The position numbers were made by a program, and so were the translations under genes. Below are positions 2,270 through 46,029 of a stretch of 64,000 nt of DNA, in pieces (positions within the stretch are counted from its first letter, which is position 1; each line of letters opens with the position of its first letter). The notes beneath the pieces were generated by a model, which saw nothing but the letters and a program-made list of their open reading frames with translations, was not told the DNA's origin and searched no databases. Source of the stretch: Candidatus Omnitrophota bacterium (lineage in GTDB: Bacteria > Omnitrophota > Gorgyraeia > Gygaellales > JAQTUX01); assembly GCA_028707125.1 (NCBI GenBank), contig JAQTUX010000002.1, positions 272,355 through 336,354 of the forward strand, in the 5' to 3' direction.

Positions 2270-2410
2270 GACAACACCTTTATGCTGATGACTGGCGGGC
2301 AGTTTTGCGTCTTGCCCAGGACATGATACTACAGCCCTCTTTACAATGTGTAACGGGCCTGATCATCCATCTGATAATCGCCATCATCTCAATCTCACCC
2401 CCCTTATAAT

Positions 2411-2796: not shown

Positions 2797-3141
2797 CTAA
2801 ATGACAGCGTCTATCTTAGCTGCCATGATAAAATCGTTCTCGGATAAACCCTTTACGGCATGGGTAGACAGGGTAATCCTGACTTTGTTATAGGAAATGA
2901 ATATATTGGGATGGTGCCCTTCGTTTTCCGCCAGTTCCGCGACCTTATTTACAAAACTCATTGACTCTTTGAAATCCTTGAATTTAAATTCCTTCTTTAT
3001 TTTTACCGCCTCTTCCAGCTCCCAGTCCTGCAGCGCGGACGCGTACCCCCTTGCCTGTTCTTCAGGCATAGCAAGGCCTCCTGCTTCACAGGGCCGGCAT
3101 TTCTTAACCCGCAACAACTCTGCTTCTCTATTATCTGTCAT
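2797..3141 (-). CDS. pterin-4a-carbinolamine dehydratase (PCD/DCoH family)
   Basis: Motif …EGHHPNIFISYNKVRITLSTHAV… matches the PCD signature [EDKH]-x(3)-H-[HN]-P-x(5,6)-[YW]-x(9)-H-x(8,9)-D. The start is set at MTDNREAE (3141); the ORF-track alternative is 3195. Confidence 0.7.
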   Translation of the reverse strand: MTDNREAELLRVKKCRPCEAGGLAMPEEQARGYASALQDWELEEAVKIKKEFKFKDFKESMSFVNKVAELAENEGHHPNIFISYNKVRITLSTHAVKGLSENDFIMAAKIDAVI

Positions 3142-3205
3142 AACTGTCTTCCGGATATTTACTATAAAATATAACGCTTCTTTTGTAAAGCGCAAAGTGC
3201 CGCGC

Positions 3206-4381
3206 TTAACCGCGGGTATATCCGGCTATCTTTCTGCCGAACTCAAAACACTCTGATAGCTGCCCGGGCGTGGGGACGTATCTTATCTCAATACTGTCCA
3301 GCACCTCTATGTTCATCTTTGTCAATTCTTCATTTATGGCCTTTACAGCCCCTTTTCCCCAGCCGTAGCTTCCGAAAGATGCGGCCTTTTTGTTTACCGG
3401 CCTTATCCCTTTAAGAAAGGTCATAAAGCCGCCGACCGTGGGATACATCCCCATATTTAAGACGGGTGAGCCGATGGCTATTATCCGGGACTCCATTATA
3501 TCCGCCATTATCTCGCTCCAGTCGCTGGAGCGCAGGTTAAACACCGTAACATCCACGCCCTCCTGCTCAATGCCCCGCGCGATCTCCTGCGCCATCTTAT
3601 CCGTGCTCTGCCACATCGTATCAAAGACGATCGTGACCTTTGGCTCCGCCTCTCCGCTGCTCCAGCGCTTGTAGGCGTCAATTATCTTTCCGGGGCCGCG
3701 CCAGATCAAGCCGTGGGCAGGGGCTATCATTTTCAAGTTGAGCTTCATCTTTTCCAGCTCTTTGAGTTTATCCTGCGCCAGATTGGAATACATGCTTACT
3801 ATTACCGCGAAGTACCTGGCCGCCTCGCGCATGACCACATCTCCTAATTCGTCGTCAAAACGCTGATGGGTCGCTATATGCTGGCCAAAGGCGTCGTTGG
3901 TGAACAACATCTCTTCTTCTTTTACATACGTAAACATATTGTCCGGCCAGTGAAGCATGGCGGCTTCAATAAACTCAAGCGTCCTTTTGCCCAGTTTTAA
4001 TGTATCGCCTGTCTTTACGGCCTCGGCATTCCAGTCAGTACCGAAGTGCGACAGCAGGCCGTCCTTGCCCGCCTTAGTGGCGATGATCTTCGCGTTTACG
4101 GCGTATTTTTTAAGTTCCGGCAGGCATCCGGCATGGTCGCGCTCTGAATGCTGGCAGATGATATAGTCGATCTTCGCCGGGTCAACGATCTCCCTTATCC
4201 TCTCCAGCATAATATGCTCAAAACCATTCTTCACCGCGTCCACAAGCGCGATCTTATCGTCTATAATAAGATAGGAGTTATACGTTGTGCCGCGCGGCGT
4301 AGTGTAGGAACCGCAAAAGCGCAGATTCCAGTCGATCGCTCCTACCCAATAAATATCTGGCGCTATCTTTACTGCCGGCAT
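3206..4381 (-). CDS. fprA: flavodiiron protein (FprA/ROO type; metallo-beta-lactamase-like diiron domain plus flavodoxin domain)
   Basis: 391 aa. The N-terminal MBL-like domain carries HSERDH (H-x-E-x-D-H diiron ligands) and the C-terminal part is a flavodoxin-like domain; size and order are typical of class A FDPs. Confidence 0.8.
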   Translation of the reverse strand: MPAVKIAPDIYWVGAIDWNLRFCGSYTTPRGTTYNSYLIIDDKIALVDAVKNGFEHIMLERIREIVDPAKIDYIICQHSERDHAGCLPELKKYAVNAKIIATKAGKDGLLSHFGTDWNAEAVKTGDTLKLGKRTLEFIEAAMLHWPDNMFTYVKEEEMLFTNDAFGQHIATHQRFDDELGDVVMREAARYFAVIVSMYSNLAQDKLKELEKMKLNLKMIAPAHGLIWRGPGKIIDAYKRWSSGEAEPKVTIVFDTMWQSTDKMAQEIARGIEQEGVDVTVFNLRSSDWSEIMADIMESRIIAIGSPVLNMGMYPTVGGFMTFLKGIRPVNKKAASFGSYGWGKGAVKAINEELTKMNIEVLDSIEIRYVPTPGQLSECFEFGRKIAGYTRG

Positions 4382-4392
4382 ACCCTGTCCTC

Positions 4393-5241
4393 CTATATAT
4401 TCTTTTCCAGTAATTGCCTGATCTTGGATCCTCTATCTACTTGCGCGCCGTAATCCCGAAACGGCTCTTCAAATGTCGCGGCTTCCTTCTTATAAAATGT
4501 CCCCAGGGCGATCGGCGCCTCTTTGTTATAATCCCACTCCCTTATTTTTTGCAGGGCGCCGTCATAGTTACGCGGGTCATGGTCTTTTAGTTCATACGCG
4601 TGCCTGGTATAATACTGATACATATTGTAGAAGGTAACGCATACCTGCAATACGTCTACCAGGGAAAATCCCTTGTGCGCCAACGCCTCCTTAAAAATAC
4701 CCTTAAGAAGCTCTATGCCGTGGGAATAACCCCTGGCAAGGAAGGTGGCGCCGCTTGAAAGCATAAGTTCGAGGGGATTTATGGGCAACTCCCTGGTGCC
4801 GAACGGCGTGGAGCGGCCCCTGAAACCCAACGGCGAAGTAGGTGTATATTGGCCGGTTGTAAGCCCGTATACCCGGTTGTTGTGTATGATCATTGTTATG
4901 TCTATATTGCGTTTAGCGGCAAATATGAGATGCTCCAAGCCCTCCCCGTAAGCGTCTCCGTCTCCGGCGAAGCCGATTACCTTTAAATCAGGGTTCGCCA
5001 GCTTTATGCCGATGGCTACCGGCACAACCCTGCCGTGTATGGAATAAAAACTGTTGACGTTGATATAATCAACTATCTTAGCGTGGCATCCTATGCCGGA
5101 AACCAGGACAACCTTCTCCAGAGGGAAACCCTCATTCCTCAACTCATCAAGTATGGCCTTGACAGCATTAAGGATGGCGAAGTTTCCGCAGCCCGGACAC
5201 CAGGTATTTACGGCGTAAGTGCCTAAGTCATTCTGGCTCAT
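4393..5241 (-). CDS. korB: 2-oxoacid:ferredoxin oxidoreductase, beta subunit (TPP-binding)
   Basis: 282 aa. The N-terminal Cys cluster (CPGCG…, Fe-S ligands) and the GDG…N TPP-binding fold are typical of OFOR beta subunits. Overlaps the alpha-subunit gene by 4 nt. Confidence 0.8.
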   Translation of the reverse strand: MSQNDLGTYAVNTWCPGCGNFAILNAVKAILDELRNEGFPLEKVVLVSGIGCHAKIVDYINVNSFYSIHGRVVPVAIGIKLANPDLKVIGFAGDGDAYGEGLEHLIFAAKRNIDITMIIHNNRVYGLTTGQYTPTSPLGFRGRSTPFGTRELPINPLELMLSSGATFLARGYSHGIELLKGIFKEALAHKGFSLVDVLQVCVTFYNMYQYYTRHAYELKDHDPRNYDGALQKIREWDYNKEAPIALGTFYKKEAATFEEPFRDYGAQVDRGSKIRQLLEKNI

Positions 5242-6890
5242 CTCATCGCCTCGCCTAATCTGGATTCTAACTCATCCAAAGAAAACGGCCTTCCATCGTA
5301 TTTCAGTATCATTTTGTCAACCTTCAGGCCGCGCGCTGACATAAGGCCCGCGAGCATTCCTGTGGCGTTATTTTCCACGCAGATTACCTTTTTGGCGCCT
5401 TTGAGCGCTTCACTGAACTGCTTTAAGGGGAACGGTGAAAGCACAAGCGGCTGTATCACCTTAAGCCCCAACTTTTCCGCTGCCTCAACGCATACACCTT
5501 TATTAGAGCCCCAGCAGACAACCGCGCATTCAGCAGAAGGATTACCGTACGCCTTTACCGCTCTATATTTCTCCAAATCCTGCGCCAGGTATTTCTCCTT
5601 GCGCAGGCGCTTATCGTAAGAAGAGGTGATCGTCGCGGGATCTTCAGTGGTTATACCGTAGTCATCGTGCTCATAACTGCTGGCCTTTATAACCGCGCCT
5701 TTACGCGGGACAAATGCCAGGGGAGAAACCCCTGTTTCCGTATTCAGGTATCTTTTATAATCACCGTCTTTATCCCATAAGAGCGGCGGTTCCTCTTTTA
5801 CGCTGTCTACGGCGGATGCCTCAAAGCTGAATGTTGCCTCGTTTAATGTCTTATCGGTCAGGACAAAACACGGTATCTGGTATTTCCAGGCGATGTTTAA
5901 CGCGACCGCTGACCAGTAACAGGCCTCTTCCGCGTCTCCGGGGGCTGTTACAAGCCTCACAAACTCTCCGTGACCGGCGTTTAGAACAAAATTCAGGTCT
6001 GCCTGCGCCGTATATGTGGGGACCCCTGTGGAAGGGCCTGGCCGCTGCCCCATGACAATAACTACGGGCAGCTCTGCCATACCCGCCAAACTCAACCCTT
6101 CATTCATCAGGCAGAAGCCGCCGCCTGAAGTGCCTACGGCGGCCTTCTCTCCGCAATAGGCGAAACCCAGCGCCATTAATATCACGGAAATCTCGCTTTC
6201 CGGATGAACCACCTTTAAGGAAAACTCCTTTGAAAGCCCGGCGAGAAAATGCAGGACGCCGGAAGAAGGTGTCATAGGATAGGCAATGTATGACTTAAGC
6301 CCTGCCTTAATAAGGCCTAAACCGATCGCTTCATTACCTGTAAATAGAGAAAAAGGCGCCTGAGATATCGCCGGCAGGGCAAGCGACTCTTCTGTTTCGT
6401 TGTAACCCCGCAAGGCGATCTTGATATTCAAATCGGCCTCTCTGGGAATATGTTTCTTAAATACCTCCTCCAGAATATCCTGTTTTATTCCCGCCGCCCT
6501 GCAAAAGGCGCCTATAATGCAGGAGTTGCGCATTATCGCGGAGCCGCCTTCTTCCTTGATCATCTTTTCTAAAGGCAGGCCGCTGCCTTTTGACTTAACC
6601 GTATCCGAATCATAGACTATCAGTGAGTTATCTTTAAGGCGGTGTTTGTGAAGGTCCACCGTATCCTGATTTAAGGCGAGTAGAACGTCTATCTTATCAC
6701 GATGAACAGCGATCTTTTTCTCAGACGCCCGGATAATAGCAAAGTTATGCCCCCCTCTTATAAGTGAGGGATAGTCCAGGTATACATATATACGCCAACC
6801 CAGGCGGTTGAGCAGATGCGCGATAAGGGAGGCGGCCTGGTTTATGCCCTCCCCTGCCTTTCCGCCGATAAGAACCGAGAAATCAGCCAT
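5238..6890 (-). CDS. korA: 2-oxoacid:ferredoxin oxidoreductase, fused gamma-alpha subunit
   Basis: 550 aa. N-terminal gamma-type domain (MADFSVLIGGKAGEGI…) followed by an OFOR alpha domain (…AYPMTPSS…); a two-subunit, 2-oxoglutarate/2-oxoisovalerate-type OFOR. Confidence 0.8.
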   Translation of the reverse strand: MADFSVLIGGKAGEGINQAASLIAHLLNRLGWRIYVYLDYPSLIRGGHNFAIIRASEKKIAVHRDKIDVLLALNQDTVDLHKHRLKDNSLIVYDSDTVKSKGSGLPLEKMIKEEGGSAIMRNSCIIGAFCRAAGIKQDILEEVFKKHIPREADLNIKIALRGYNETEESLALPAISQAPFSLFTGNEAIGLGLIKAGLKSYIAYPMTPSSGVLHFLAGLSKEFSLKVVHPESEISVILMALGFAYCGEKAAVGTSGGGFCLMNEGLSLAGMAELPVVIVMGQRPGPSTGVPTYTAQADLNFVLNAGHGEFVRLVTAPGDAEEACYWSAVALNIAWKYQIPCFVLTDKTLNEATFSFEASAVDSVKEEPPLLWDKDGDYKRYLNTETGVSPLAFVPRKGAVIKASSYEHDDYGITTEDPATITSSYDKRLRKEKYLAQDLEKYRAVKAYGNPSAECAVVCWGSNKGVCVEAAEKLGLKVIQPLVLSPFPLKQFSEALKGAKKVICVENNATGMLAGLMSARGLKVDKMILKYDGRPFSLDELESRLGEAMR

Positions 6891-7495
6891 TATTTTAGAT
6901 TGTCTGCGACCTTACCTACCATCTCTTTACCGGGTGTAAGTGTTTTCTCTCCCGGCTGCCATCTCGCGGGGCATACCTGCGCGGGATTCTCCCTGACATG
7001 CTTGAACGCCCTGAGCTTTCTTAATAATTCATCGGAATTCCTGCCTACCGGAAAATAATTCACCTCTGAGGCAACGAGTTTTCTATCGGGATCAACAATA
7101 AATGTGCCCCGCAATGCCAGTCCGGTTGACTCGTCGTAGACCCCGAAGGTCTTGGAGACAATATGAGTGGGGTCTGCCCCCATGGGGTACCTTATACCGG
7201 CCAGCAGCGCCTCAGATCTCTGCCAGGCGTAATGCACAAAATGAGTGTCGGTGCTCAGGGAAATCAACTCCGCGCCTTCTTTCCTGAGTTCTTCGTATTT
7301 TTCCGCCACATCAGCAAGTTCGGTGGGGCAGACAAACGTATAATCGGCAGGATAAAAGAAAAGTATCAACCAGTTGCCCCTCTTGGAGATGTCCGTGAAT
7401 TTGATCTTAGCGAAATCCTTCTTCTCGGTCAGGTAAACATCTATCTCGAACTCAGGGATCTTATCGCCTATCTTTAATATATTGATCTCTTCCAT
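6890..7495 (-). CDS. peroxiredoxin (AhpC/TSA family thiol peroxidase)
   Basis: Peroxidatic motif FYPADYTFVCPTEL. The start is trimmed to MEEINILK at 7495, preceded by GGAAGGAGG. Confidence 0.85.
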   Translation of the reverse strand: MEEINILKIGDKIPEFEIDVYLTEKKDFAKIKFTDISKRGNWLILFFYPADYTFVCPTELADVAEKYEELRKEGAELISLSTDTHFVHYAWQRSEALLAGIRYPMGADPTHIVSKTFGVYDESTGLALRGTFIVDPDRKLVASEVNYFPVGRNSDELLRKLRAFKHVRENPAQVCPARWQPGEKTLTPGKEMVGKVADNLK

Positions 7496-7548
7496 AAAGG
7501 GCCTCCTTCCCAACACTTTTATATCACCGAATCAGGAAAATGACAATA

Positions 7549-9219
7549 TTATTTTCCCTGCAGCGCCGCATCCAGGTCCTGCTCCGCGGTTGAGATCGGC
7601 TTGATACCAAACTTTTCTACCAGTACCTTAAGCACATTCGGCGAAACAAACGCCGGCAGCGAAGGGCCTAATCGTATGTTCTTGATGCCCAGGGCAAGAA
7701 GCGTGAGAAGAATGCACACCGCCTTCTGCTCATACCAAGATAAGACCAGCGACAAGGGAAGCTCGTTAACTCCGCATTTGAACGCCCCTGCCAGGGCAAG
7801 CGCTATCTGGATGGCGGAATACGAATCATTGCACTGGCCGCAGTCAAGAAGCCGCGGTATGCCGCCGATGTCCCCGAACTCCAGCTTGTTAAACCTGTAT
7901 TTACCGCAGGCAAGCGTAAGTATTACCGTGTCCCCGGGCGCCTTCTCGGCAAATTCAGTATAATAGTTCCTGCCTGACTTTGCCCCGTCGCAGCCGCCGA
8001 TAAGGAAGAAACGCCTTATCTTGCCTGCCTTGACCGCATCTATCACTTTATCGGCAACGCTAAGAACTGCGTTACGGGCAAATCCCACCAGTATCTCCTT
8101 ATCTTCCCTGTCATCCTTAAAGCCGCCGGCCTCAAGCGCCTTGTCAATGACCGCGCCGAAATCCTTTTTTCCGCCTTTGCCTTCTATATGCTTGACACCC
8201 GGCCAGGCAACCAGGCCCGTGGTAAATATCCTGTCCCTATAAGAATCCCCGGGCCTCTGGATACAGTTGGTGGTCATAAGGATACTGCCGGGGAAATCAT
8301 TAAACTCCCTTATCTGGTCCTGCCAGGCGCCTCCGTAGTTGCCCGCCAGATGCTTATATTTCTTCAATCCGGGATAGCCGTGCGCGGGCAGCATCTCTCC
8401 GTGGGTATATATGTTTATGCCTTTGCCCTCTGTTTGCTTCAACAACTCCTCCAGATCAAGCAGGTCATGTCCTGAAACCAGGATCGCCGGCCCCTTCCTC
8501 ACGCCCAGTGAGACCTTGGTGGGTTCGGGATGGCCGAAACGTTCAACGTGCGCGCCGTCAAGCAACTCCAGGCACTTCAGGTTCACCCTGCCGAAATCCA
8601 TGATCATGCCCAGTAGATCATCCGCTTTCAGGCCATCCCTCGTAATAAAGGACAGCGCCTTATAGAAGAAAGAGATTATTTCCTCATCCTTCTTACCTAA
8701 TATATAGACGTGGTCCGCGTAAGCAGCCATGCCTTTGAGGCCGTAAACAAGGATCTCTTTTAAGCTTCTTATGTCTTCATCAAGCGAGGGGTCGGACATT
8801 ATGCCTACTTCCTTACCCTGATCTATGAGCCCTTCCAGCGTATCAGCCGGCTCCCAATCGGTCTCCGCGGCAAGCTTACCCCTGAATTCCGCGCCGTGCT
8901 TATCTTTATAGGCCTTAAGAAACAGGCGCCTATTCTTCTCCTTCAGCTCGTACGCGCTCAATAAAAGCCCGCGTAATCTTTCCGGGTCAAAATCCACGTT
9001 GGTAACCGTGCTGAACAGGCCTTCAATTATAAAAATGTCGGTAGCCTCATCTCTTACGCCCAGCTCTCTGGCGGCATTCCCATAGACCGATATGCCTTTT
9101 AAAGCGTATATAAGCAGGTCCTGGAGCGCTGCCGTCTCCGGTTTCTTCCCGCATACGCCCGATACCGTACAACCCTTGCCGCCTGCCGCCTGTTCACACT
9201 GATAGCAGAACATACTCAT
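7549..9219 (-). CDS. hcp: hybrid cluster protein / hydroxylamine reductase
   Basis: 556 aa with N-terminal MSMFCYQCEQAAGGKGCT, the hallmark Cys motif of Hcp (prismane protein). Confidence 0.9.
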   Translation of the reverse strand: MSMFCYQCEQAAGGKGCTVSGVCGKKPETAALQDLLIYALKGISVYGNAARELGVRDEATDIFIIEGLFSTVTNVDFDPERLRGLLLSAYELKEKNRRLFLKAYKDKHGAEFRGKLAAETDWEPADTLEGLIDQGKEVGIMSDPSLDEDIRSLKEILVYGLKGMAAYADHVYILGKKDEEIISFFYKALSFITRDGLKADDLLGMIMDFGRVNLKCLELLDGAHVERFGHPEPTKVSLGVRKGPAILVSGHDLLDLEELLKQTEGKGINIYTHGEMLPAHGYPGLKKYKHLAGNYGGAWQDQIREFNDFPGSILMTTNCIQRPGDSYRDRIFTTGLVAWPGVKHIEGKGGKKDFGAVIDKALEAGGFKDDREDKEILVGFARNAVLSVADKVIDAVKAGKIRRFFLIGGCDGAKSGRNYYTEFAEKAPGDTVILTLACGKYRFNKLEFGDIGGIPRLLDCGQCNDSYSAIQIALALAGAFKCGVNELPLSLVLSWYEQKAVCILLTLLALGIKNIRLGPSLPAFVSPNVLKVLVEKFGIKPISTAEQDLDAALQGK

Positions 9220-9953
9220 CGCCTTCCTCCTTGTAGATATATTTCCTCAGCTAATTTTTTGCCTGTGGCCGTAAGAAATATCTTGTTGATCATCTCTCTC
9301 AGTTTATCACTATCCCCTGTCTTGACCTCATCCTTAAGGTTGACCAGCCAGTCGGCATCGTACAATACCCTGAAATTATCCGTGTTAACCTTTCCGGGTG
9401 AATGATGATTGGCTATTATGAGGCATATTTCATCTATGTCCTTTTTCTCCAGCCCCATACGCCTTAAGGTCTCCTTCGCGATCGCTGGGCCCTCCCTTTC
9501 CTGATAATGGCCTGCCGATGAGCCGTATTTTTGCTCTGCCGCCTCTATCCCCACATCATGCAGCAACGCGGCAGGTATCACTATATGCCAGTCCGCCTGC
9601 TCCTTCCTTAGTATCTCCTCGGCATAGTCCATAACCTTGCGCGCGTGCCTTATCCTCTTCTTATCCTGCCCAAAATAATTCTCTAAGGCCTTTATTATTT
9701 TATCTTTAAGCATTATGGATTTGTTTTCCAGATACCTGGCATAAAGCTTATCCCCAACGCATTCCCTGGCATACTTGCACCAGTCAAGGCAGCCGGCTGT
9801 ATCCCCCTGACGCATAACCTCCTTCTTGCAGGACGGGCAGATCGCCCTGGCCTCATCGCTCCATATCTCCATCTCCTGTTTGCAATAAGGGCAGTTTATA
9901 ATTTCCGGCACCGGCTGTTTGAACCTGCCCGCGCCCGGGCATTCCAGCATCAT
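9216..9953 (-). CDS. HD-domain phosphohydrolase with N-terminal zinc-ribbon (4 Cys)
   Basis: Two CxxC pairs at the N-terminus (CPYCK…CPSCK), then an …AALLHDVG… HD motif and a downstream His/Asp. Overlaps hcp by 4 nt. Confidence 0.6.
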   Translation of the reverse strand: MMLECPGAGRFKQPVPEIINCPYCKQEMEIWSDEARAICPSCKKEVMRQGDTAGCLDWCKYARECVGDKLYARYLENKSIMLKDKIIKALENYFGQDKKRIRHARKVMDYAEEILRKEQADWHIVIPAALLHDVGIEAAEQKYGSSAGHYQEREGPAIAKETLRRMGLEKKDIDEICLIIANHHSPGKVNTDNFRVLYDADWLVNLKDEVKTGDSDKLREMINKIFLTATGKKLAEEIYLQGGRR

Positions 9954-10780
9954 TTTAATCTCTCTCCCTGAATGCTTATAATCGCTTCCTTAAAAGGCAC
10001 CTTCTTCCCGGAATCGGAAATCACCGATTGGATAACGCTTACCAGCCCGAAACAACAGGGCACCTCCATATGGGCGTATGTTATGGATTTTATCTCGTTG
10101 TTTTGCAGGATCTGGGCAAATTTTTCCTTGTAGGACTCTACATCGTCTAATTTAGGGCAGCCCACCAGCACAACTTTGCCCTTCAACAATTCGTTATGAA
10201 AATCGGCGTAGGCAAACGGCACGCAATCCGCCGCTATCAGCAAGTCCGCTCCCCGCAGATACGGCGCGAAGGGAGGGACCAGGGTGATCTGTATCGGCCA
10301 CTGCCTGAGCTGCGGCTCCATATGCCCGGCCGTGGCTGGCGAGGCGGTTTCATTCCGCTCTTTCCTGAAATCCATTAGTTTTGAGCCGGGGCAGCCGGAA
10401 CGCGCGGCATGCGAGGGCTTACTTAAATCAGGCACCTTTATATTATTCTTCTTAAGATAATCCACTGCCTGGTTAAAATATACCGTCTGATCATGCTCCT
10501 TAAGATGTAAAAGGTGCGCATTGATAACATTCCCGCCCTGTTTTGCCACATTTGCCATAACCTTGTATTCATCATATTCCTCTGCCTCCCTTTCCTCTAT
10601 TGTTATCGCCCCTTGAGGGCAGTGGCCGATACAGGCACCCAGCCCATCGCAGAACAGGTCGCTTATGAGGCGCGCCTTTCCGTCTATGATCTGCATCGCC
10701 CCCTCCGGGCAGTTGGGGACACACAGGCCGCAGCCGTTACATTTTCCTTCATCGATCTTTATGATCTTTCTCCTGGGCAT
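9950..10780 (-). CDS. 4Fe-4S dicluster ferredoxin-domain protein (Hcp-associated)
   Basis: The N-terminus carries two CxxCxxCxxxCP motifs (CNGCGLCVPNCP, CDGLGACIGHCP); a Cys-rich C-terminal domain (VGCPKLDD…PCCFG) follows. Overlaps the HD gene by 4 nt. Confidence 0.65.
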   Translation of the reverse strand: MPRRKIIKIDEGKCNGCGLCVPNCPEGAMQIIDGKARLISDLFCDGLGACIGHCPQGAITIEEREAEEYDEYKVMANVAKQGGNVINAHLLHLKEHDQTVYFNQAVDYLKKNNIKVPDLSKPSHAARSGCPGSKLMDFRKERNETASPATAGHMEPQLRQWPIQITLVPPFAPYLRGADLLIAADCVPFAYADFHNELLKGKVVLVGCPKLDDVESYKEKFAQILQNNEIKSITYAHMEVPCCFGLVSVIQSVISDSGKKVPFKEAIISIQGERLK

Positions 10781-11192
10781 CTCTACGCCCTCCTTCTTTT
10801 ACCAAAGAAGCTATGGTTATGGATCTTAATTCAGATGCCACATACCTGCCGATAGCGTCGATTTTCTTTTTTAAAACACATTCTTTGGTATTAGGACAAA
10901 TGTGCTTTTTCAGGGTGCATTCGTTTAACTTGAACGGGCCCTGGAATATATTTATCAGGTCGGTAATAAATATCCTCTGAGGCCTGACCGCGAGCCTGAA
11001 TCCGCCTGCCTGCCCCCTGATAGATATAAGCAGTCCCTCCCTATTCAGTATCTGAAGTATCTTCCTTAAAAAAGGCCGCGGTATCTTAAGGCGGCTGACA
11101 AGGTCGCTTGCAGGGATTAATGCCCCTTTCCTGCCCGCTATGAACACAAGCGCCCTGACCGCGTAATCCGTATTCCTGGTGATCAGCTTCAC
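10749..11192 (-). CDS. Rrf2-family transcriptional regulator with three-Cys cluster motif (NsrR/IscR-like)
   Basis: 147 aa. N-terminal wHTH (…TDYAVRALVFIA…) and C…C….C spacing (NECTLKKHICPNTKEC) as in Fe-S-containing Rrf2 regulators. It is the first gene of the co-directional array. Confidence 0.8.
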   Translation of the reverse strand: MKLITRNTDYAVRALVFIAGRKGALIPASDLVSRLKIPRPFLRKILQILNREGLLISIRGQAGGFRLAVRPQRIFITDLINIFQGPFKLNECTLKKHICPNTKECVLKKKIDAIGRYVASELRSITIASLVKEGGRRDAQEKDHKDR

Positions 11193-11216
11193 TCCCTTCT
11201 CCTTTCAGTTCTTGAT

Positions 11217-11241
11217 AAATGATACCATAATAGTATCATTT
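11217..11241. promoter_or_regulatory. perfect inverted repeat AAATGATAC-N7-GTATCATTT, candidate Rrf2 operator
   Basis: Seen directly: 9-bp arms around a 7-bp spacer, about 25 bp upstream of the Rrf2 start codon. An AT-rich dyad of this geometry is what Rrf2 regulators typically bind. Confidence 0.5.
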
Positions 11242-11294
11242 GTCAAGAAAAAAATAATTTTATTTAACCGGCAACGCCTGTCTGGGATCACGCG

Positions 11295-12338
11295 TCAACT
11301 ATGTTTCTTCAAACGAATGCTGTTAAGCATCAACATGATCAGAAGCCAGGAAGCGCATACCTTGATATAGCGCGGCATAACCTCTCCCGCCCCACCCAGC
11401 GCGCTCTTCACATCAATCCCCGAGGCCAGATAGATCTGATTAAGCAATAACCCCAATACTATTGAACAAACCGCGATAGACGCCAGATATATCGCTACGG
11501 ACCTCATTCCCAGGAACCTGCCGGTGGTAATTATGCCGGCGATATTGGTTGCCGGTCCGGCTAAAAGGAATACCAGCGCCGCTCCCGGGCTCATGCCTTT
11601 TGCGATCAAGGCGGCGGCTATAGGGGTTGAGGCTGAAGCGCAGATATAGAGAGGGATGCCTATTATCAACATTATGAACATCGCCTGCCAGTTATAACCG
11701 AGATACCCCTCAATTAATCTCTGCGGGACAAAATACGCTATGATGCCGGCCATTATTATGCCGAAGGCAAGCCATACCGCGATATCCGCCAGCAGGTCTA
11801 CAAACGCGTAACGCATACCGTATTTAAATTTCTCGATTAAATTGTGGGTATGCGCCTCTTCCTCTTCGCAGAAAACGCAGGAACCCGGCCTGATTGATGA
11901 ATGCGCCCCGTCTTTTCTGCCGAAGATATTCTCCGTGATGCCGGCGATAATAGCCGTGATAAAGGCGGCCGCCGGCCGGAACACGGTCATTATGGGGTCC
12001 AGTAACGCGTAAGACAGGGCGATCGAGTCCACGCTTGATTCAGGCGTTGAGATCAAGAAAGAAAGCACCGCGCCTCTGGACGCGCCGTTCTTTCGTAAAG
12101 ATACGGCTGTGGGGATCACGCCGCAAGAACATAAAGGCAGGGGAATGCCGCAGACAGCCGAAAGCAGGACTGATTTTATCCCCCGGCCGCCCAGATGCCT
12201 GGCGATCTTGTCTTTATTTATGAACATCTGGATCACGCCGGAAATAAAAATACCGAAAAGAAGGTAGGGGGCGGCCTCTTCCATAGTATGCCAGATCTCC
12301 CCAATCAAGCTTTCTATAACGTAACCGATATCCGCCAT
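11295..12338 (-). CDS. permease, COG0701/DUF318 family (two-repeat membrane permease with Cys-rich loop)
   Basis: 347 aa, polytopic, with the …CGIPLPLCSCGVIP… motif characteristic of the YraQ/ArsP-like permease family. Confidence 0.6.
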   Translation of the reverse strand: MADIGYVIESLIGEIWHTMEEAAPYLLFGIFISGVIQMFINKDKIARHLGGRGIKSVLLSAVCGIPLPLCSCGVIPTAVSLRKNGASRGAVLSFLISTPESSVDSIALSYALLDPIMTVFRPAAAFITAIIAGITENIFGRKDGAHSSIRPGSCVFCEEEEAHTHNLIEKFKYGMRYAFVDLLADIAVWLAFGIIMAGIIAYFVPQRLIEGYLGYNWQAMFIMLIIGIPLYICASASTPIAAALIAKGMSPGAALVFLLAGPATNIAGIITTGRFLGMRSVAIYLASIAVCSIVLGLLLNQIYLASGIDVKSALGGAGEVMPRYIKVCASWLLIMLMLNSIRLKKHS

Positions 12339-12348
12339 TCTTAATGTA

Positions 12349-13092
12349 TTAATGATTATGGAAAAAGAATTTCATTACCCACATAATAAGCAGCCCGAAG
12401 AGAAAAAACGCCACGGAAAGGTTCGCCCGCTTGAAAGGGCCGTGCTTACGCAGCTCGGGTATGAGGTCGCAGGTGGAGATATACAAAAATCCTCCGGCCG
12501 CGAACGGCAGTATGAATAGAGAGAACTGCCCTGCCTGACGGGAGAAATAATAGCCGATCAACGCCCCAAGCACAGCCCCCAGGGCGCAGATAAAATTAAA
12601 AGCAAGCGCCTTGAAACGATGGAATCCGCCGTAAACCAGGACTCCGAAGTCGCCTATCTCCTGCGGTATCTCGTGAAAGATGACCGCGACCGTGGTAACG
12701 ATGCCGAAATGGATCCCCGCGTTAAAGCTGGCGCCGATCATTATCCCGTCTATAAGATTGTGTATGCCGTCGCCGATGAGGTTAAGATAAGTAAAGATAT
12801 GCACATCACATACGCCGTTGTGGCAATGGTGCCAGTAAAGGTATTTCTCCAGGACAAAAAACGCGGAAAACCCCAGAATACAGGAGCCAAAAACTAAAGG
12901 AACGCTGAGATGCTCAAATGCCTCCGGCAATAAATGAAACAACGCTCCCCCGATAAGCGCCCCTGCCGACAGGGCGATCAATAGGATGAGGGCCCTGTTC
13001 AGGATCTTCTCATTAAGCATCAGGCTGAATACGCCTACCAGAGAAACCAGGCTTACCACTAAAGTAGCGCCTATCGCCCAAACCAGATTCAT
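12349..13092 (-). CDS. ZIP-family divalent metal transporter (ZupT-like)
   Basis: 247 aa with the …HEIPQEIGDFGVL… and …HNLIDG… motifs of the ZIP family. Confidence 0.8.
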   Translation of the reverse strand: MNLVWAIGATLVVSLVSLVGVFSLMLNEKILNRALILLIALSAGALIGGALFHLLPEAFEHLSVPLVFGSCILGFSAFFVLEKYLYWHHCHNGVCDVHIFTYLNLIGDGIHNLIDGIMIGASFNAGIHFGIVTTVAVIFHEIPQEIGDFGVLVYGGFHRFKALAFNFICALGAVLGALIGYYFSRQAGQFSLFILPFAAGGFLYISTCDLIPELRKHGPFKRANLSVAFFLFGLLIMWVMKFFFHNH

Positions 13093-20944: not shown

Positions 20945-21682
20945 CTAAAAGTACACGGGAAATATCAATCTCATGATCGGCTCATACCAGAATATGGAAA
21001 CAAGCGCGGCCAGCGAAAGAAAGGGCCCGTAGGGTATAGTGTGGTCTTTTTTCTTTAATAAAATATAAACGCCTACGGCCGTGCCGAAAAAAGGCGCGGC
21101 GAAAAACGTAAACAGCGCTTTTTTGTATCCCAAAAAAGCGCCTATCATGGCCAGAAGCTTCACATCCCCTCCGCCCATGGTCTCCTTCTTGAAGATAAAA
21201 TCGCCTAAAAGGCCCGTAAGATATATGACGCCTCCTCCGATCAGGATCCCAAGCAGCGAGTCAATGTTATGGTTAAAGACAAAACCGGCTATTATCCCTC
21301 CTATCGAAACCTCATCCGGTATAATGCGGTGTTTCAAATCCACAAATGTGGCGACGATCAGGCCGCAGGACAGGACCGCGTAAGAAACACTTTCAAATCC
21401 CAACCCGAATCTGCTGTATAAGGAAAAAAACGCGCCTGCCGTAAGTAATTCAACAAAAGGATAGACAAAGGATATCCTGCCGCCGCATGACCTGCATTTG
21501 GCCCTGAGTATCAGAAAGCTGACAATAGGTATGTTATCGTACCAGGATATTACATGATCGCATCTGGGGCAGAATGACCGGGGGGGCTTGTTGACCGGCT
21601 TTCCCAGCGGCAGGCGGTATATGCAGACATTGAGGAAACTGCCTACGCACAGGCCTAAAATTAATACAATGGCTATAGCCAA
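20945..21682 (-). CDS. prepilin peptidase (A24 family)
   Basis: 245 aa with the N-terminal Cys-rich Zn-binding region (CPRCDH…CRSCG) and a polytopic peptidase domain with a conserved Asp (…IPDEV…, …GGGDVKL…). Confidence 0.8.
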   Translation of the reverse strand: MAIAIVLILGLCVGSFLNVCIYRLPLGKPVNKPPRSFCPRCDHVISWYDNIPIVSFLILRAKCRSCGGRISFVYPFVELLTAGAFFSLYSRFGLGFESVSYAVLSCGLIVATFVDLKHRIIPDEVSIGGIIAGFVFNHNIDSLLGILIGGGVIYLTGLLGDFIFKKETMGGGDVKLLAMIGAFLGYKKALFTFFAAPFFGTAVGVYILLKKKDHTIPYGPFLSLAALVSIFWYEPIMRLIFPVYF

Positions 21683-38785: not shown

Positions 38786-38858
38786 AGCGGGAGACGGGGT
38801 TCGAACCCGCGGCAACGACGTTGGCAACGTCGCACTCTACCAACTGAGTTACTCCCGC
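38786..38858 (-). tRNA. tRNA-Gly (anticodon GCC)
   Basis: Hand-folded cloverleaf: acceptor GCGGGAG/CTCCCGC, anticodon loop TTGCCAA, T-loop GGTTCGAAC, discriminator U. CCA is not encoded. Confidence 0.85.
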
Positions 38859-38983
38859 AGTAAAGCAGAACTAAGAATTAAGAGCTAAGAACTAAGATGA
38901 CATCTATGAACCCATCCAAAACAAACAACAAAAAAATTCCCTTTTGCCCCTTAATTTTTTCTTAGTTCTTAATTCTGCCTTTA

Positions 38984-39065
38984 TGGGCGGAAGAGGATTT
39001 GAACCTCCAAGGGTTGCCCCAATAGCTCCTAAGGCTATCGCGTATCCCAATTCCGCCATCCGCCC
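38984..39065 (-). tRNA. tRNA-Leu (anticodon TAG), type II with long variable arm
   Basis: Acceptor GGGCGGA/TCCGCCC, 3-bp D-stem, anticodon loop CTTAGGA (U33, G37), variable stem GGGG/CCCT, T-loop TTCAAAT, discriminator A. CCA is not encoded. Confidence 0.8.
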
Positions 39066-39075
39066 CGCATTCTAA

Positions 39076-39148
39076 TGAGCCACGGAGGACTCGAACCTCC
39101 CACAGCCATCTTAAAAGGATGGTGCTCTGCCGGATGAGCTAGTGGCCC
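39076..39148 (-). tRNA. tRNA-Lys (anticodon TTT)
   Basis: Acceptor GGGCCAC/GTGGCTC, D-arm GCTC…GAGC, anticodon loop CTTTTAA, T-loop TTCGAGT, discriminator A. CCA is not encoded. Confidence 0.85.
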
Positions 39149-44897: not shown

Positions 44898-46029
44898 CAA
44901 AAAGATAATGATAGTTGCCGGCGAGGCATCCGGCGATATGCATGCCGCGCACCTGATAAAGGCGCTCAGGGAACTTGAGCCGTCGGCGCAATTCTCCGGC
45001 CTGGGCGGAGAACGCATGGAACAGGCGGGGGCGCGCGTCTATTACGACCTCACCAGGATCGCGGTGGTAGGATTCCAGGAAGTATTAAGAAACCTGGGGA
45101 AATTCCGAGGCGCGTTCAAGCTGTTCCTCAAAGAAGCCCGGGCGATCCGGCCTGACTGCGTTGTGCTGGTTGACTATCCGGGGTTTAACCTCGCGCTGGC
45201 GAAACAACTCAAGCGGTTAAAGATAAGGACCGTCTATTACATTTCCCCGCAGGTCTGGGCCTGGCACAGGGGACGGGTAAAGGCGATACGCAAATTCGTA
45301 GATAAAATGCTGGTGGTATTCCGGTTTGAAAAGGAATTCTACGAAGAAGAAGGCATTGAGGCGGAATACGTGGGCCACCCCCTGCTTGACATAGTCAGGC
45401 CGTCCATGAATAAAGAAGAGGCGTTCACCCGTCTCTGCCTTTCCTTTAAAAGAATAACCGTGGCGCTCCTGCCCGGCTCAAGGCAGCAGGAGGTAAAGAA
45501 ACTGCTGCCTGTCATGCTGGAGGCGGCAAAGTTAATAAATAAAACAATACCTCCCACGCAGTTCGTGATACTAAGATCCGAGGCGGTAGCAAAAGAAATA
45601 TTTGAGGGGGCTATCTCCAGATCCGGCTTACGGGTAAGCCTGCTTGAGGGCAATACATACGACGGAATAAATATAGCCGATTTCTGTATCGTTGCCTCGG
45701 GAACGGCGACCCTGGAAGTAGCTATAATGGAAAGGCCGATGGTAGTGGTTTACAAGACCTCCCTGCTTACCTCATTTATCGCCAGGTGCCTGGTCAGGAT
45801 ACCGGATATCGCGCTGGTAAACGTGGTCGCCGGAGGGCGCATCGTGCCCGAACTGATACAGTCAGACGCGACAGCGCAAAAGATCGCCAAAGAATCGGTG
45901 GGCATCCTTTCCGACCCGGAAAGGATCATATCTATCAGGCGCCAGCTGCAGGAAATAAAAGAAATGCTCAAACCCTACGGCGCGGCGCAAAGAGCGGCAA
46001 AGATTATCGTTGATTTCATACACCCCTGA
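44890..46029 (+). CDS. lpxB: lipid-A-disaccharide synthase
   Basis: 379 aa. GT19-family pattern (MIVAGEASGD…, …VDYPGFNL…, …YISPQVWAW…). Confidence 0.85.
   Translation: MADKKIMIVAGEASGDMHAAHLIKALRELEPSAQFSGLGGERMEQAGARVYYDLTRIAVVGFQEVLRNLGKFRGAFKLFLKEARAIRPDCVVLVDYPGFNLALAKQLKRLKIRTVYYISPQVWAWHRGRVKAIRKFVDKMLVVFRFEKEFYEEEGIEAEYVGHPLLDIVRPSMNKEEAFTRLCLSFKRITVALLPGSRQQEVKKLLPVMLEAAKLINKTIPPTQFVILRSEAVAKEIFEGAISRSGLRVSLLEGNTYDGINIADFCIVASGTATLEVAIMERPMVVVYKTSLLTSFIARCLVRIPDIALVNVVAGGRIVPELIQSDATAQKIAKESVGILSDPERIISIRRQLQEIKEMLKPYGAAQRAAKIIVDFIHP

Follow-up and report, generated by a model that had tools for sequence, protein, structure and literature searches.

Does the perfect inverted repeat that stands directly ahead of an Rrf2-family regulator gene in this Omnitrophota contig serve as the operator through which the regulator controls its own transcription, as a preliminary description of the sequence had proposed, and which genes and which signal would such a circuit connect? 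We addressed these questions in the window itself (the whole stretch of 64,000 nucleotides that was analysed), in genome loci that encode related Rrf2 proteins, and in metagenome contigs that carry the DNA motif.

The dyad is a single site within a predicted promoter

The dyad described previously, two 9-nt arms around a 7-nt spacer (AAATGATAC-CATAATA-GTATCATTT), is present at 11217-11241 with no mismatch. It is the sole match in the 64-kb window when up to three mismatches are allowed, and its 7-nt half-sites with a gap of 5-9 nt occur once in the window and in none of 100 shuffles. The Rrf2 gene (10749-11192) is encoded on the minus strand, so "upstream" is the right word in that orientation: the measured distance from the dyad to the start codon is 24 nt (about 25 nt had been given), and the site falls within the 102-nt gap that follows the stop codon (11295) of an SO_0444-type permease gene.

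Three loci in the window have perfect inverted repeats whose arms measure 9 nt or more and whose spacer does not exceed 10 nt, compared to 2.5 ± 1.7 in dinucleotide shuffles. A perfect 9-nt dyad in 64 kb is therefore at chance level, and the case for this site rests on its conservation instead. The other two perfect repeats lie at 21115-21141 and 45904-45926; one of the pair, GCGCTTTTTTG-TATCC-CAAAAAAGCGC, resembles a bidirectional terminator, and the other is ATCCTTTCC-GACCC-GGAAAGGAT.

On the minus strand, the sequence ahead of the Rrf2 gene reads, in order, as an AT-rich tract that may act as an UP element (11247-11266), the -35 hexamer TTGACA (11241-11246, located by a promoter scan), a 16-nt spacer, the extended -10 element TGgTATCAT (11219-11227; hexamer 11219-11224), the ribosome-binding site AAAGGAG (11199-11205), and, 6 nt further on, the GTG start codon. 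TTGACA-16 nt-TGgTATCAT agrees with the sigma-70 consensus at 11 of 12 positions, in addition to its extended -10, and is the best promoter-like site of the first 13.5 kb. The left half-site of the dyad, ATGATAC, occupies the spacer between the -35 and -10 elements, while the right half-site, GTATCAT, coincides with the -10 box.

A search for further operators returned this site only. With a symmetrised position weight matrix built from 78 related sites, the dyad scores 39.7 bits and the runner-up in 64 kb scores -0.6 bits, which is the level of shuffled sequence. Allowing two half-site mismatches and variable spacing produced no match outside coding sequence (the hits at 1057-1076 and 2323 are both coding). 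The ATGATAC half-site that had been placed at 2308-2316 actually lies at 2323-2329, inside a minus-strand micro-ORF where it is part of the codons for C-S-I-M, and the same 7-mer occurs 10 times in the window. The earlier hint of a small regulon within the window was thus not borne out: the unit regulated here would be the single long operon downstream of the operator.

The site and the Rrf2 gene are linked in both directions across genomes

To assess conservation, we gathered 80 genome loci by Rrf2 protein patterns alone. Their Rrf2 proteins are 52-67% identical, and most of the loci belong to Omnitrophota, with some labelled Atribacterota, Aminicenantes, Auribacterota, Nitrospinota, Clostridia or Planctomycetia. 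Of these loci, 78 have a single ATGATAC-N7-GTATCAT site (≤2 mismatches) ahead of the Rrf2 gene and essentially no further copy within ±4 kb; one more locus breaks off within the site. The distance from the site to the start codon falls into three classes: 27-100 nt; about 170 nt, with a micro-ORF in between; and, rarely, 500-700 nt, where another gene (e.g. that for AhpC) comes first. One locus (L061) carries two tandem copies of the operator, at 3927-3947 and 3963-3983, that are 36 bp apart; the second copy, nearer to the Rrf2 start, has two mismatches.

A logo of 79 unique sites delimits what is conserved. The half-sites AATGATAC and GTATCATT are identical in 76-79 of the 79 sites at each position, and within the 7-nt spacer an inner symmetric pair is retained (A in 71/79, T in 76/79), whereas the flanks are unconserved (<0.5 bit). 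The conserved core is therefore 23 bp long (11218-11240), an 8-7-8 dyad with inner A/T symmetry that can be written AATGATAC-nAnnnTn-GTATCATT.

The symmetry seen in the window extends beyond this core. The outermost A/T pair of the 9-7-9 dyad is symmetric in the window, with its right-hand position being T in only 25 of 79 family sites. The dyad is also embedded in a 41-bp near-palindrome (20-1-20, two mismatches; 11209-11249), a degree of symmetry reached by 0 of 20 shuffles. We rejected an extended or tetrameric operator of this size, because the extension is not conserved in 190 related sites: flank complementarity over these sites equals a shuffled-pair null, with the window as the extreme case (8/10). 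Judged by these alignments, neither the outermost pair nor the 41-bp extension is a feature of the family, and the extension is probably lineage-specific and fortuitous. A mirror-image promoter-like sequence on the plus strand (TTGATA-16-TATCAT, 10/12; 11212-11239), antisense to the permease gene, exists because the window site is an extended palindrome; since that extension is absent elsewhere, the mirror-image promoter is probably fortuitous as well.

The promoter is conserved together with the core, and remains near consensus across the family (TTGACA, 16 or 17 nt, TGnTATCAT). The logo retains the TG of the extended -10 and also displays A/T enrichment at -10 to -18. TTGACA is found in two registers that differ by 1 nt relative to the operator (26 versus 51-53 sites, with 16- and 17-nt spacers). 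The spacer of a promoter is normally free in sequence. The invariance of the half-site that fills the spacer, and of the non-consensus C of TATCAT (kept in 79/79 sites), despite the presence of two -35 registers, indicates that promoter and operator are separate, overlapping constraints.

We then approached the linkage from the DNA side: a search of metagenome contigs for exact matches to TTGACAAATGATAC-N7-GTATCAT returned at least 120 contigs. Among the matches listed, an Rrf2 homologue is the first recognisable downstream gene in 98 of 120 contigs. Twelve of the 120 end too soon, leaving 98 of 108 informative contigs among those listed. Nothing recognisable lies downstream of the motif in 5/120, a rubrerythrin-like gene comes first in 1/120, and the operator stands directly before a ferredoxin-like gene, with no Rrf2 gene in the operon, in 4/120 of the listed contigs (L098, L146, L180 and L200). 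The Rrf2-less operon of L146 encodes the ferredoxin-like protein, pterin dehydratase, both 2-oxoacid:ferredoxin oxidoreductase (OFOR) subunits (alpha and beta) and a flavodiiron protein. Such occasional operons imply a factor that acts in trans, and we regard these four contigs as sequence evidence for trans targets in some genomes.

Together, the 78 of 80 loci found through the protein and the 98 of 108 contigs found through the motif link the site to the Rrf2 gene both ways. With the logo, they lend strong comparative support to the original proposal of a putative autoregulatory operator that overlaps the regulator's own promoter. Related sites are non-independent samples, and their conservation could be overestimated if the cassette has moved horizontally as a whole; the unconserved flanks argue against a recent common origin of the sites.

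The regulator appears to belong to an uncharacterised Rrf2 subfamily

The protein encoded next to the site is 147 aa long and matches the Rrf2 family in Pfam (PF02082, 1.8e-29). It is identical to an Rrf2 regulator from a Candidatus Omnitrophota MAG and has approximately 2000 relatives, the nearest at 60-68% identity. Only one NCBIfam model is passed, the TIGR00738 superfamily model (102 bits versus a cut-off of 73). The NsrR equivalog NF008240 fails (59.8 bits versus 182), as do the IscR models TIGR02010 (57.2 versus 207.55) and NF008110 (36.4 versus 275). The models for the SUF regulator and RirA reach 75 and 71 bits; the SUF, RirA, NsrR and IscR equivalog cut-offs, at 111-208, were all failed.

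Structure comparison places the protein in the family. All of the top 37 PDB matches that Foldseek returned for its AF2 model (pLDDT 83.6) are Rrf2 proteins, the best being RsrR, CymR, IscR and NsrR, with TM scores of 0.6-0.77 at 20-26% identity; by sequence, the closest solved relative is found at only E = 3e-10. In an alignment of 24 relatives, three cysteines (C92, C99 and C105) never vary, and their aligned counterparts in E. coli NsrR and IscR are the cluster cysteines. An invariant T8-D9-Y10 aligns with T7-D8-Y9 of E. coli NsrR, and the position aligned with IscR H107 holds Lys, not His. With three Cys and the Asp aligned (residues that we take to be cluster ligands) and the IscR His absent, the ligand set is NsrR-like.

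The label "NsrR/IscR-type" that had been given to the operator is thus apt only loosely, in the sense of Rrf2-type: the equivalog thresholds are failed, and the geometry of the site is unlike the NsrR consensus. On its model scores the protein falls outside the NsrR and IscR orthologous groups and, together with its different operator, would represent an uncharacterised Rrf2 subfamily with an operator of its own. For the same reasons, the signal that it perceives is not transferable by homology.

The putative operator precedes a long operon of redox and stress-defence genes

Behind the Rrf2 gene, the minus strand carries tightly packed, co-directional genes (2797-10780) whose ORFs overlap or lie 10-32 nt apart. 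They encode, in order, a ferredoxin-like protein with two [4Fe-4S] motifs (9950-10780), an HD-domain protein (9216-9953), the hybrid-cluster protein Hcp (7549-9219), an AhpC-type peroxiredoxin (6890-7516), the alpha and beta subunits of OFOR (5238-6890 and 4393-5241), a flavodiiron protein (3206-4381) and a pterin dehydratase (2797-3195). A further set of minus-strand genes at 171-2778 is probably the distal part of the same operon, judging by spacing alone: a short rubrerythrin-like ORF (2602-2778), a rubredoxin-like ORF (2411-2575, recognised by eye), a micro-ORF (2280-2387), genes for a PNPOx-like protein (1799-2269) and a rubrerythrin-like protein (within 1320-1973), and a thioredoxin-reductase-like gene (171-1076, recognised by eye) that is followed by a terminator-like site (46-61). 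A gap of 243 nt before position 1076 makes the membership of this last gene uncertain. No IscS, IscU or Suf genes are present in the window operon.

Related loci repeat the order Rrf2, ferredoxin-like, HD, then Hcp and/or flavodiiron protein. The most constant downstream genes are those for Hcp, its ferredoxin-like partner and the flavodiiron protein. Other frequent members encode an FNR-like FAD/NAD reductase, a desulfoferrodoxin-type superoxide reductase (SOR), a small NifU-like protein (in 16 of 80 loci), AhpC, a flavin-reductase-rubredoxin fusion, DUF2249, rubrerythrin and ferritin, so that genes concerned with O2, reactive oxygen species (ROS) and iron (SOR, rubrerythrin, AhpC, ferritin) accompany the constant core. 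No second regulator gene is frequent in the 80 loci.

Two further aspects of gene content deserve mention. The HD-domain protein, a conserved regulon member whose gene nearly always accompanies those for Rrf2, the ferredoxin-like protein and Hcp, could be assigned to no family more specific than HD; at its N terminus is a Cys-rich, zinc-ribbon-like segment. In the window, the minus strand encodes an SO_0444-type Cu/Zn permease and a ZIP transporter directly ahead of the operator (11295-13092). Transporters of both types lie inside the Rrf2-headed unit in five related loci (L006, L016, L030, L155 and L161) and just upstream of it elsewhere, a placement suggesting that the regulon and metal transport are connected.

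A conserved micro-ORF and hairpin accompany the regulon

The least ordinary feature of the locus, separate from the operator, is a conserved micro-ORF with a 3' hairpin. In the window it has 35 codons (MMAIIRWMIRPVTHCKEGCSIMSWARRKTARQSSA; 2280-2387, minus strand) and stands before the PNPOx-like gene. Its core is present in 80 unique copies in related loci (L004-L201; e.g. L057, 3876-3959), most of which encode 27 aa (MDITIKYMLRPVAHCKEGCSxLSWARR), with the consensus MDITIKYMLRPVAHCKEGCS.. and a strong ribosome-binding site. Sixty-one of the 80 copies lie between the operator/promoter and the Rrf2 gene, an arrangement found in about 45% of related loci.

Two segments of the micro-ORF differ in the way that they vary. 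The part that encodes HCKEGC varies at third codon positions only. In the 26 nt that follow (GTCCyGGGCAnGACGTTAAACTGCCC), no codon position varies, although the reading frame does not always close at the same point of this stretch (TGA, TAA or, as in the window, read-through). These 26 nt fold into a hairpin of 5 bp whose conserved 11-nt loop contains the stop codon. Pairing is maintained in 94.6% of cells in register, compared to about 40% with a slid partner; there are a few compensatory changes (L010, L082, L093, L151 and L162), and in divergent loci this position is taken by other, stronger hairpins (ViennaRNA).

No Pfam family matches the micro-ORF, and a 43-aa read-through query retrieved only four unnamed proteins from a database of 5.8 billion. 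Rfam has no match over the leader and micro-ORF: at gathering thresholds it returned only three tRNAs elsewhere in the window (a gene cluster at 38786-39148, minus strand; RF00005, 55-66 bits), and the matches at E ≤ 10 are at chance level. Automated annotation misses the micro-ORF because it is shorter than the limits of gene callers. We raise, tentatively and as less probable than not, the idea that the micro-ORF and its 26-nt hairpin form a second, undescribed cis-regulatory layer of the regulon. The peptide might be a regulatory leader that causes ribosome arrest or attenuation on a thiol-, metal- or redox-related signal; another option is that it might be a very small protein with Cys residues that serves the Rrf2 system as an effector.

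Proposed mechanism and alternative explanations

We consider it probable, on the comparative evidence above, that a dimeric Rrf2 regulator has this dyad as the core of its 23-bp operator, and that it would act by promoter occlusion and be released by Fe-S damage. In this proposal, a holo-dimer would bind the 23-bp site within the regulator's own sigma-70-type promoter. Because the half-sites fill the spacer and the -10 element, the bound dimer should exclude RNA polymerase at both, and repression would cover the regulator gene and the long operon behind it. Nitric oxide (NO), O2 or ROS would damage or remove the Fe-S cluster, the repressor would leave the DNA, and the regulator and the detoxification genes would be induced together in a negative autoregulatory loop.

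The DNA-binding form of the protein and the acting signal are the less certain part of this mechanism. The three-Cys-plus-Asp set, which is that of [4Fe-4S] NsrR, makes damage to or loss of an Fe-S cluster the likeliest signal. The operon mixes genes for NO, O2/ROS and iron/Fe-S functions with some metal transporters, so iron or Fe-S status would be an equally possible one.

A regulator that binds the same site with other logic, sensing iron or Fe-S supply as IscR and RirA do or binding in its apo form, would account for the ferritin, NifU-like, ZIP and SO_0444 genes in the operon family, and for the fact that the best partial NCBIfam scores are those of the SUF regulator and RirA (75 and 71 bits, versus 60 for NsrR). 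The most constant genes, however, are Hcp, its ferredoxin-like partner and the flavodiiron protein, a classical NO/O2 defence set; isc and suf assembly genes are not adjacent; and the Asp aligned with NsrR D8, in the absence of the IscR His, points to NsrR-like coordination. We therefore judge this alternative unlikely. A site for some other regulator, such as a member of the Fur/PerR family, with the Rrf2 gene merely the first of the genes regulated, is formally compatible with the co-localisation, which a different trans-acting factor could also produce. The TGATA/TATCA half-site resembles those of the Fur box, and rubrerythrin, AhpC and flavodiiron genes are common PerR targets in anaerobes. 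But TGATA and TATCA stand 9 nt apart here and 5 nt apart in the 7-1-7 Fur box, the 80 loci share no recurrent second regulator gene, and the site tracks Rrf2 (78/80, and 98/108 among the contigs listed) across several phyla even where the operons differ, all of which makes such a regulator very improbable.

An explanation that dispenses with a repressor altogether is harder still to credit. If the site were only a strong promoter with constitutive activity, or if it formed a hairpin or terminator in the permease transcript, its symmetry would be incidental. In favour of this, perfect 9-nt dyads are no more numerous in the window than chance predicts, the right half-site doubles as the -10 box, and RNA read from upstream could fold along the 41-bp palindrome. 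None of this explains why the half-site in the spacer, AATGATAC, is nearly invariant (77-79/79) and mirrors the -10 region, or why the non-consensus C of TATCAT is kept in every one of the 79 sites. The site also stays in place while the upstream genes vary between loci. As a hairpin it would have an AT-rich stem with no T-run on the coding strand, it displays invariance instead of covariation, and the extension that would make it long is not conserved. We return, then, to an Rrf2 operator as the preferred reading.

This reading provides a concrete recognition sequence and a target set for an uncharacterised Rrf2 clade. Defence genes for Hcp, flavodiiron protein, SOR and rubrerythrin appear to be under the control of this clade in Omnitrophota, Atribacterota, Aminicenantes and further uncultured anaerobes; we know of no regulators of oxidative or nitrosative stress in these uncultured phyla. 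The promoter documents use of a canonical -35 and an extended -10 element there, and the operator, being nearly invariant, could be used as a genomic marker for the regulon in metagenomes. The operator/repressor pair is directly testable in a heterologous host.

Comparison with known systems

We found no description of this operator or clade in open-access papers. The system has a functional analogue in HcpR, a member of the CRP/FNR family that likewise has Hcp and ferredoxin-like targets in anaerobes. HcpR is an activator that acts through a TTGAC-N4-GTCAA-type site; it belongs to an unrelated protein family, whereas the site here is of the Rrf2 repressor type and lies inside the promoter.

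Within the Rrf2 family, IscR, the [2Fe-2S] autorepressor of iscRSUA, is also encoded by the first gene of the operon that it represses, has an operator over its own promoter, and shares the fold and the three aligned Cys. It differs in its low identity (24%), in its His107 ligand, which is absent here, and in its targets, since the operon contains no isc or suf genes; the motif, too, is presumably unlike IscR type 1 or type 2 sites. RsrR of Streptomyces venezuelae, a redox-sensing [2Fe-2S] protein, is the closest match by structure (Foldseek E 4e-9, TM 0.74-0.77). RsrR is likewise autoregulatory, and its operator is an inverted repeat with 11-nt arms. The two proteins are only 24-26% identical, and the three Cys plus Asp found here contrast with the Cys/Cys/His/Glu ligands of RsrR.

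NsrR of Streptomyces coelicolor, a [4Fe-4S] protein that senses NO, represses its own gene together with hmpA1 and hmpA2 through 23-bp operators. The resemblance of the present system to NsrR includes the Rrf2 fold, the three aligned Cys and the Asp in a common T-D-Y motif, as well as an AT-rich 23-bp dyad over the promoter, putative targets in NO/oxidant defence including hcp, and an apparently autoregulatory, very small regulon. The length of 23 bp is that of the operator crystallised with NsrR (7b0c entry description). The differences lie in the protein, which is 30% identical to E. coli NsrR, in the targets, among which no hmp gene was found, in the hosts, which are anaerobic candidate phyla, and in the operator itself. 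The published NsrR consensus is gATGyAT-N5-ATrCATc (11-1-11 in its extended form), and identity with this motif was rejected: AATGATAC-N7-GTATCATT differs from it because the outer ATG and CAT triplets are 4 bp further apart, spanning 21 bp here compared to 17 bp in NsrR. An Rrf2 repressor on its own promoter is a textbook mechanism, probably encountered here with a previously undescribed recognition sequence.
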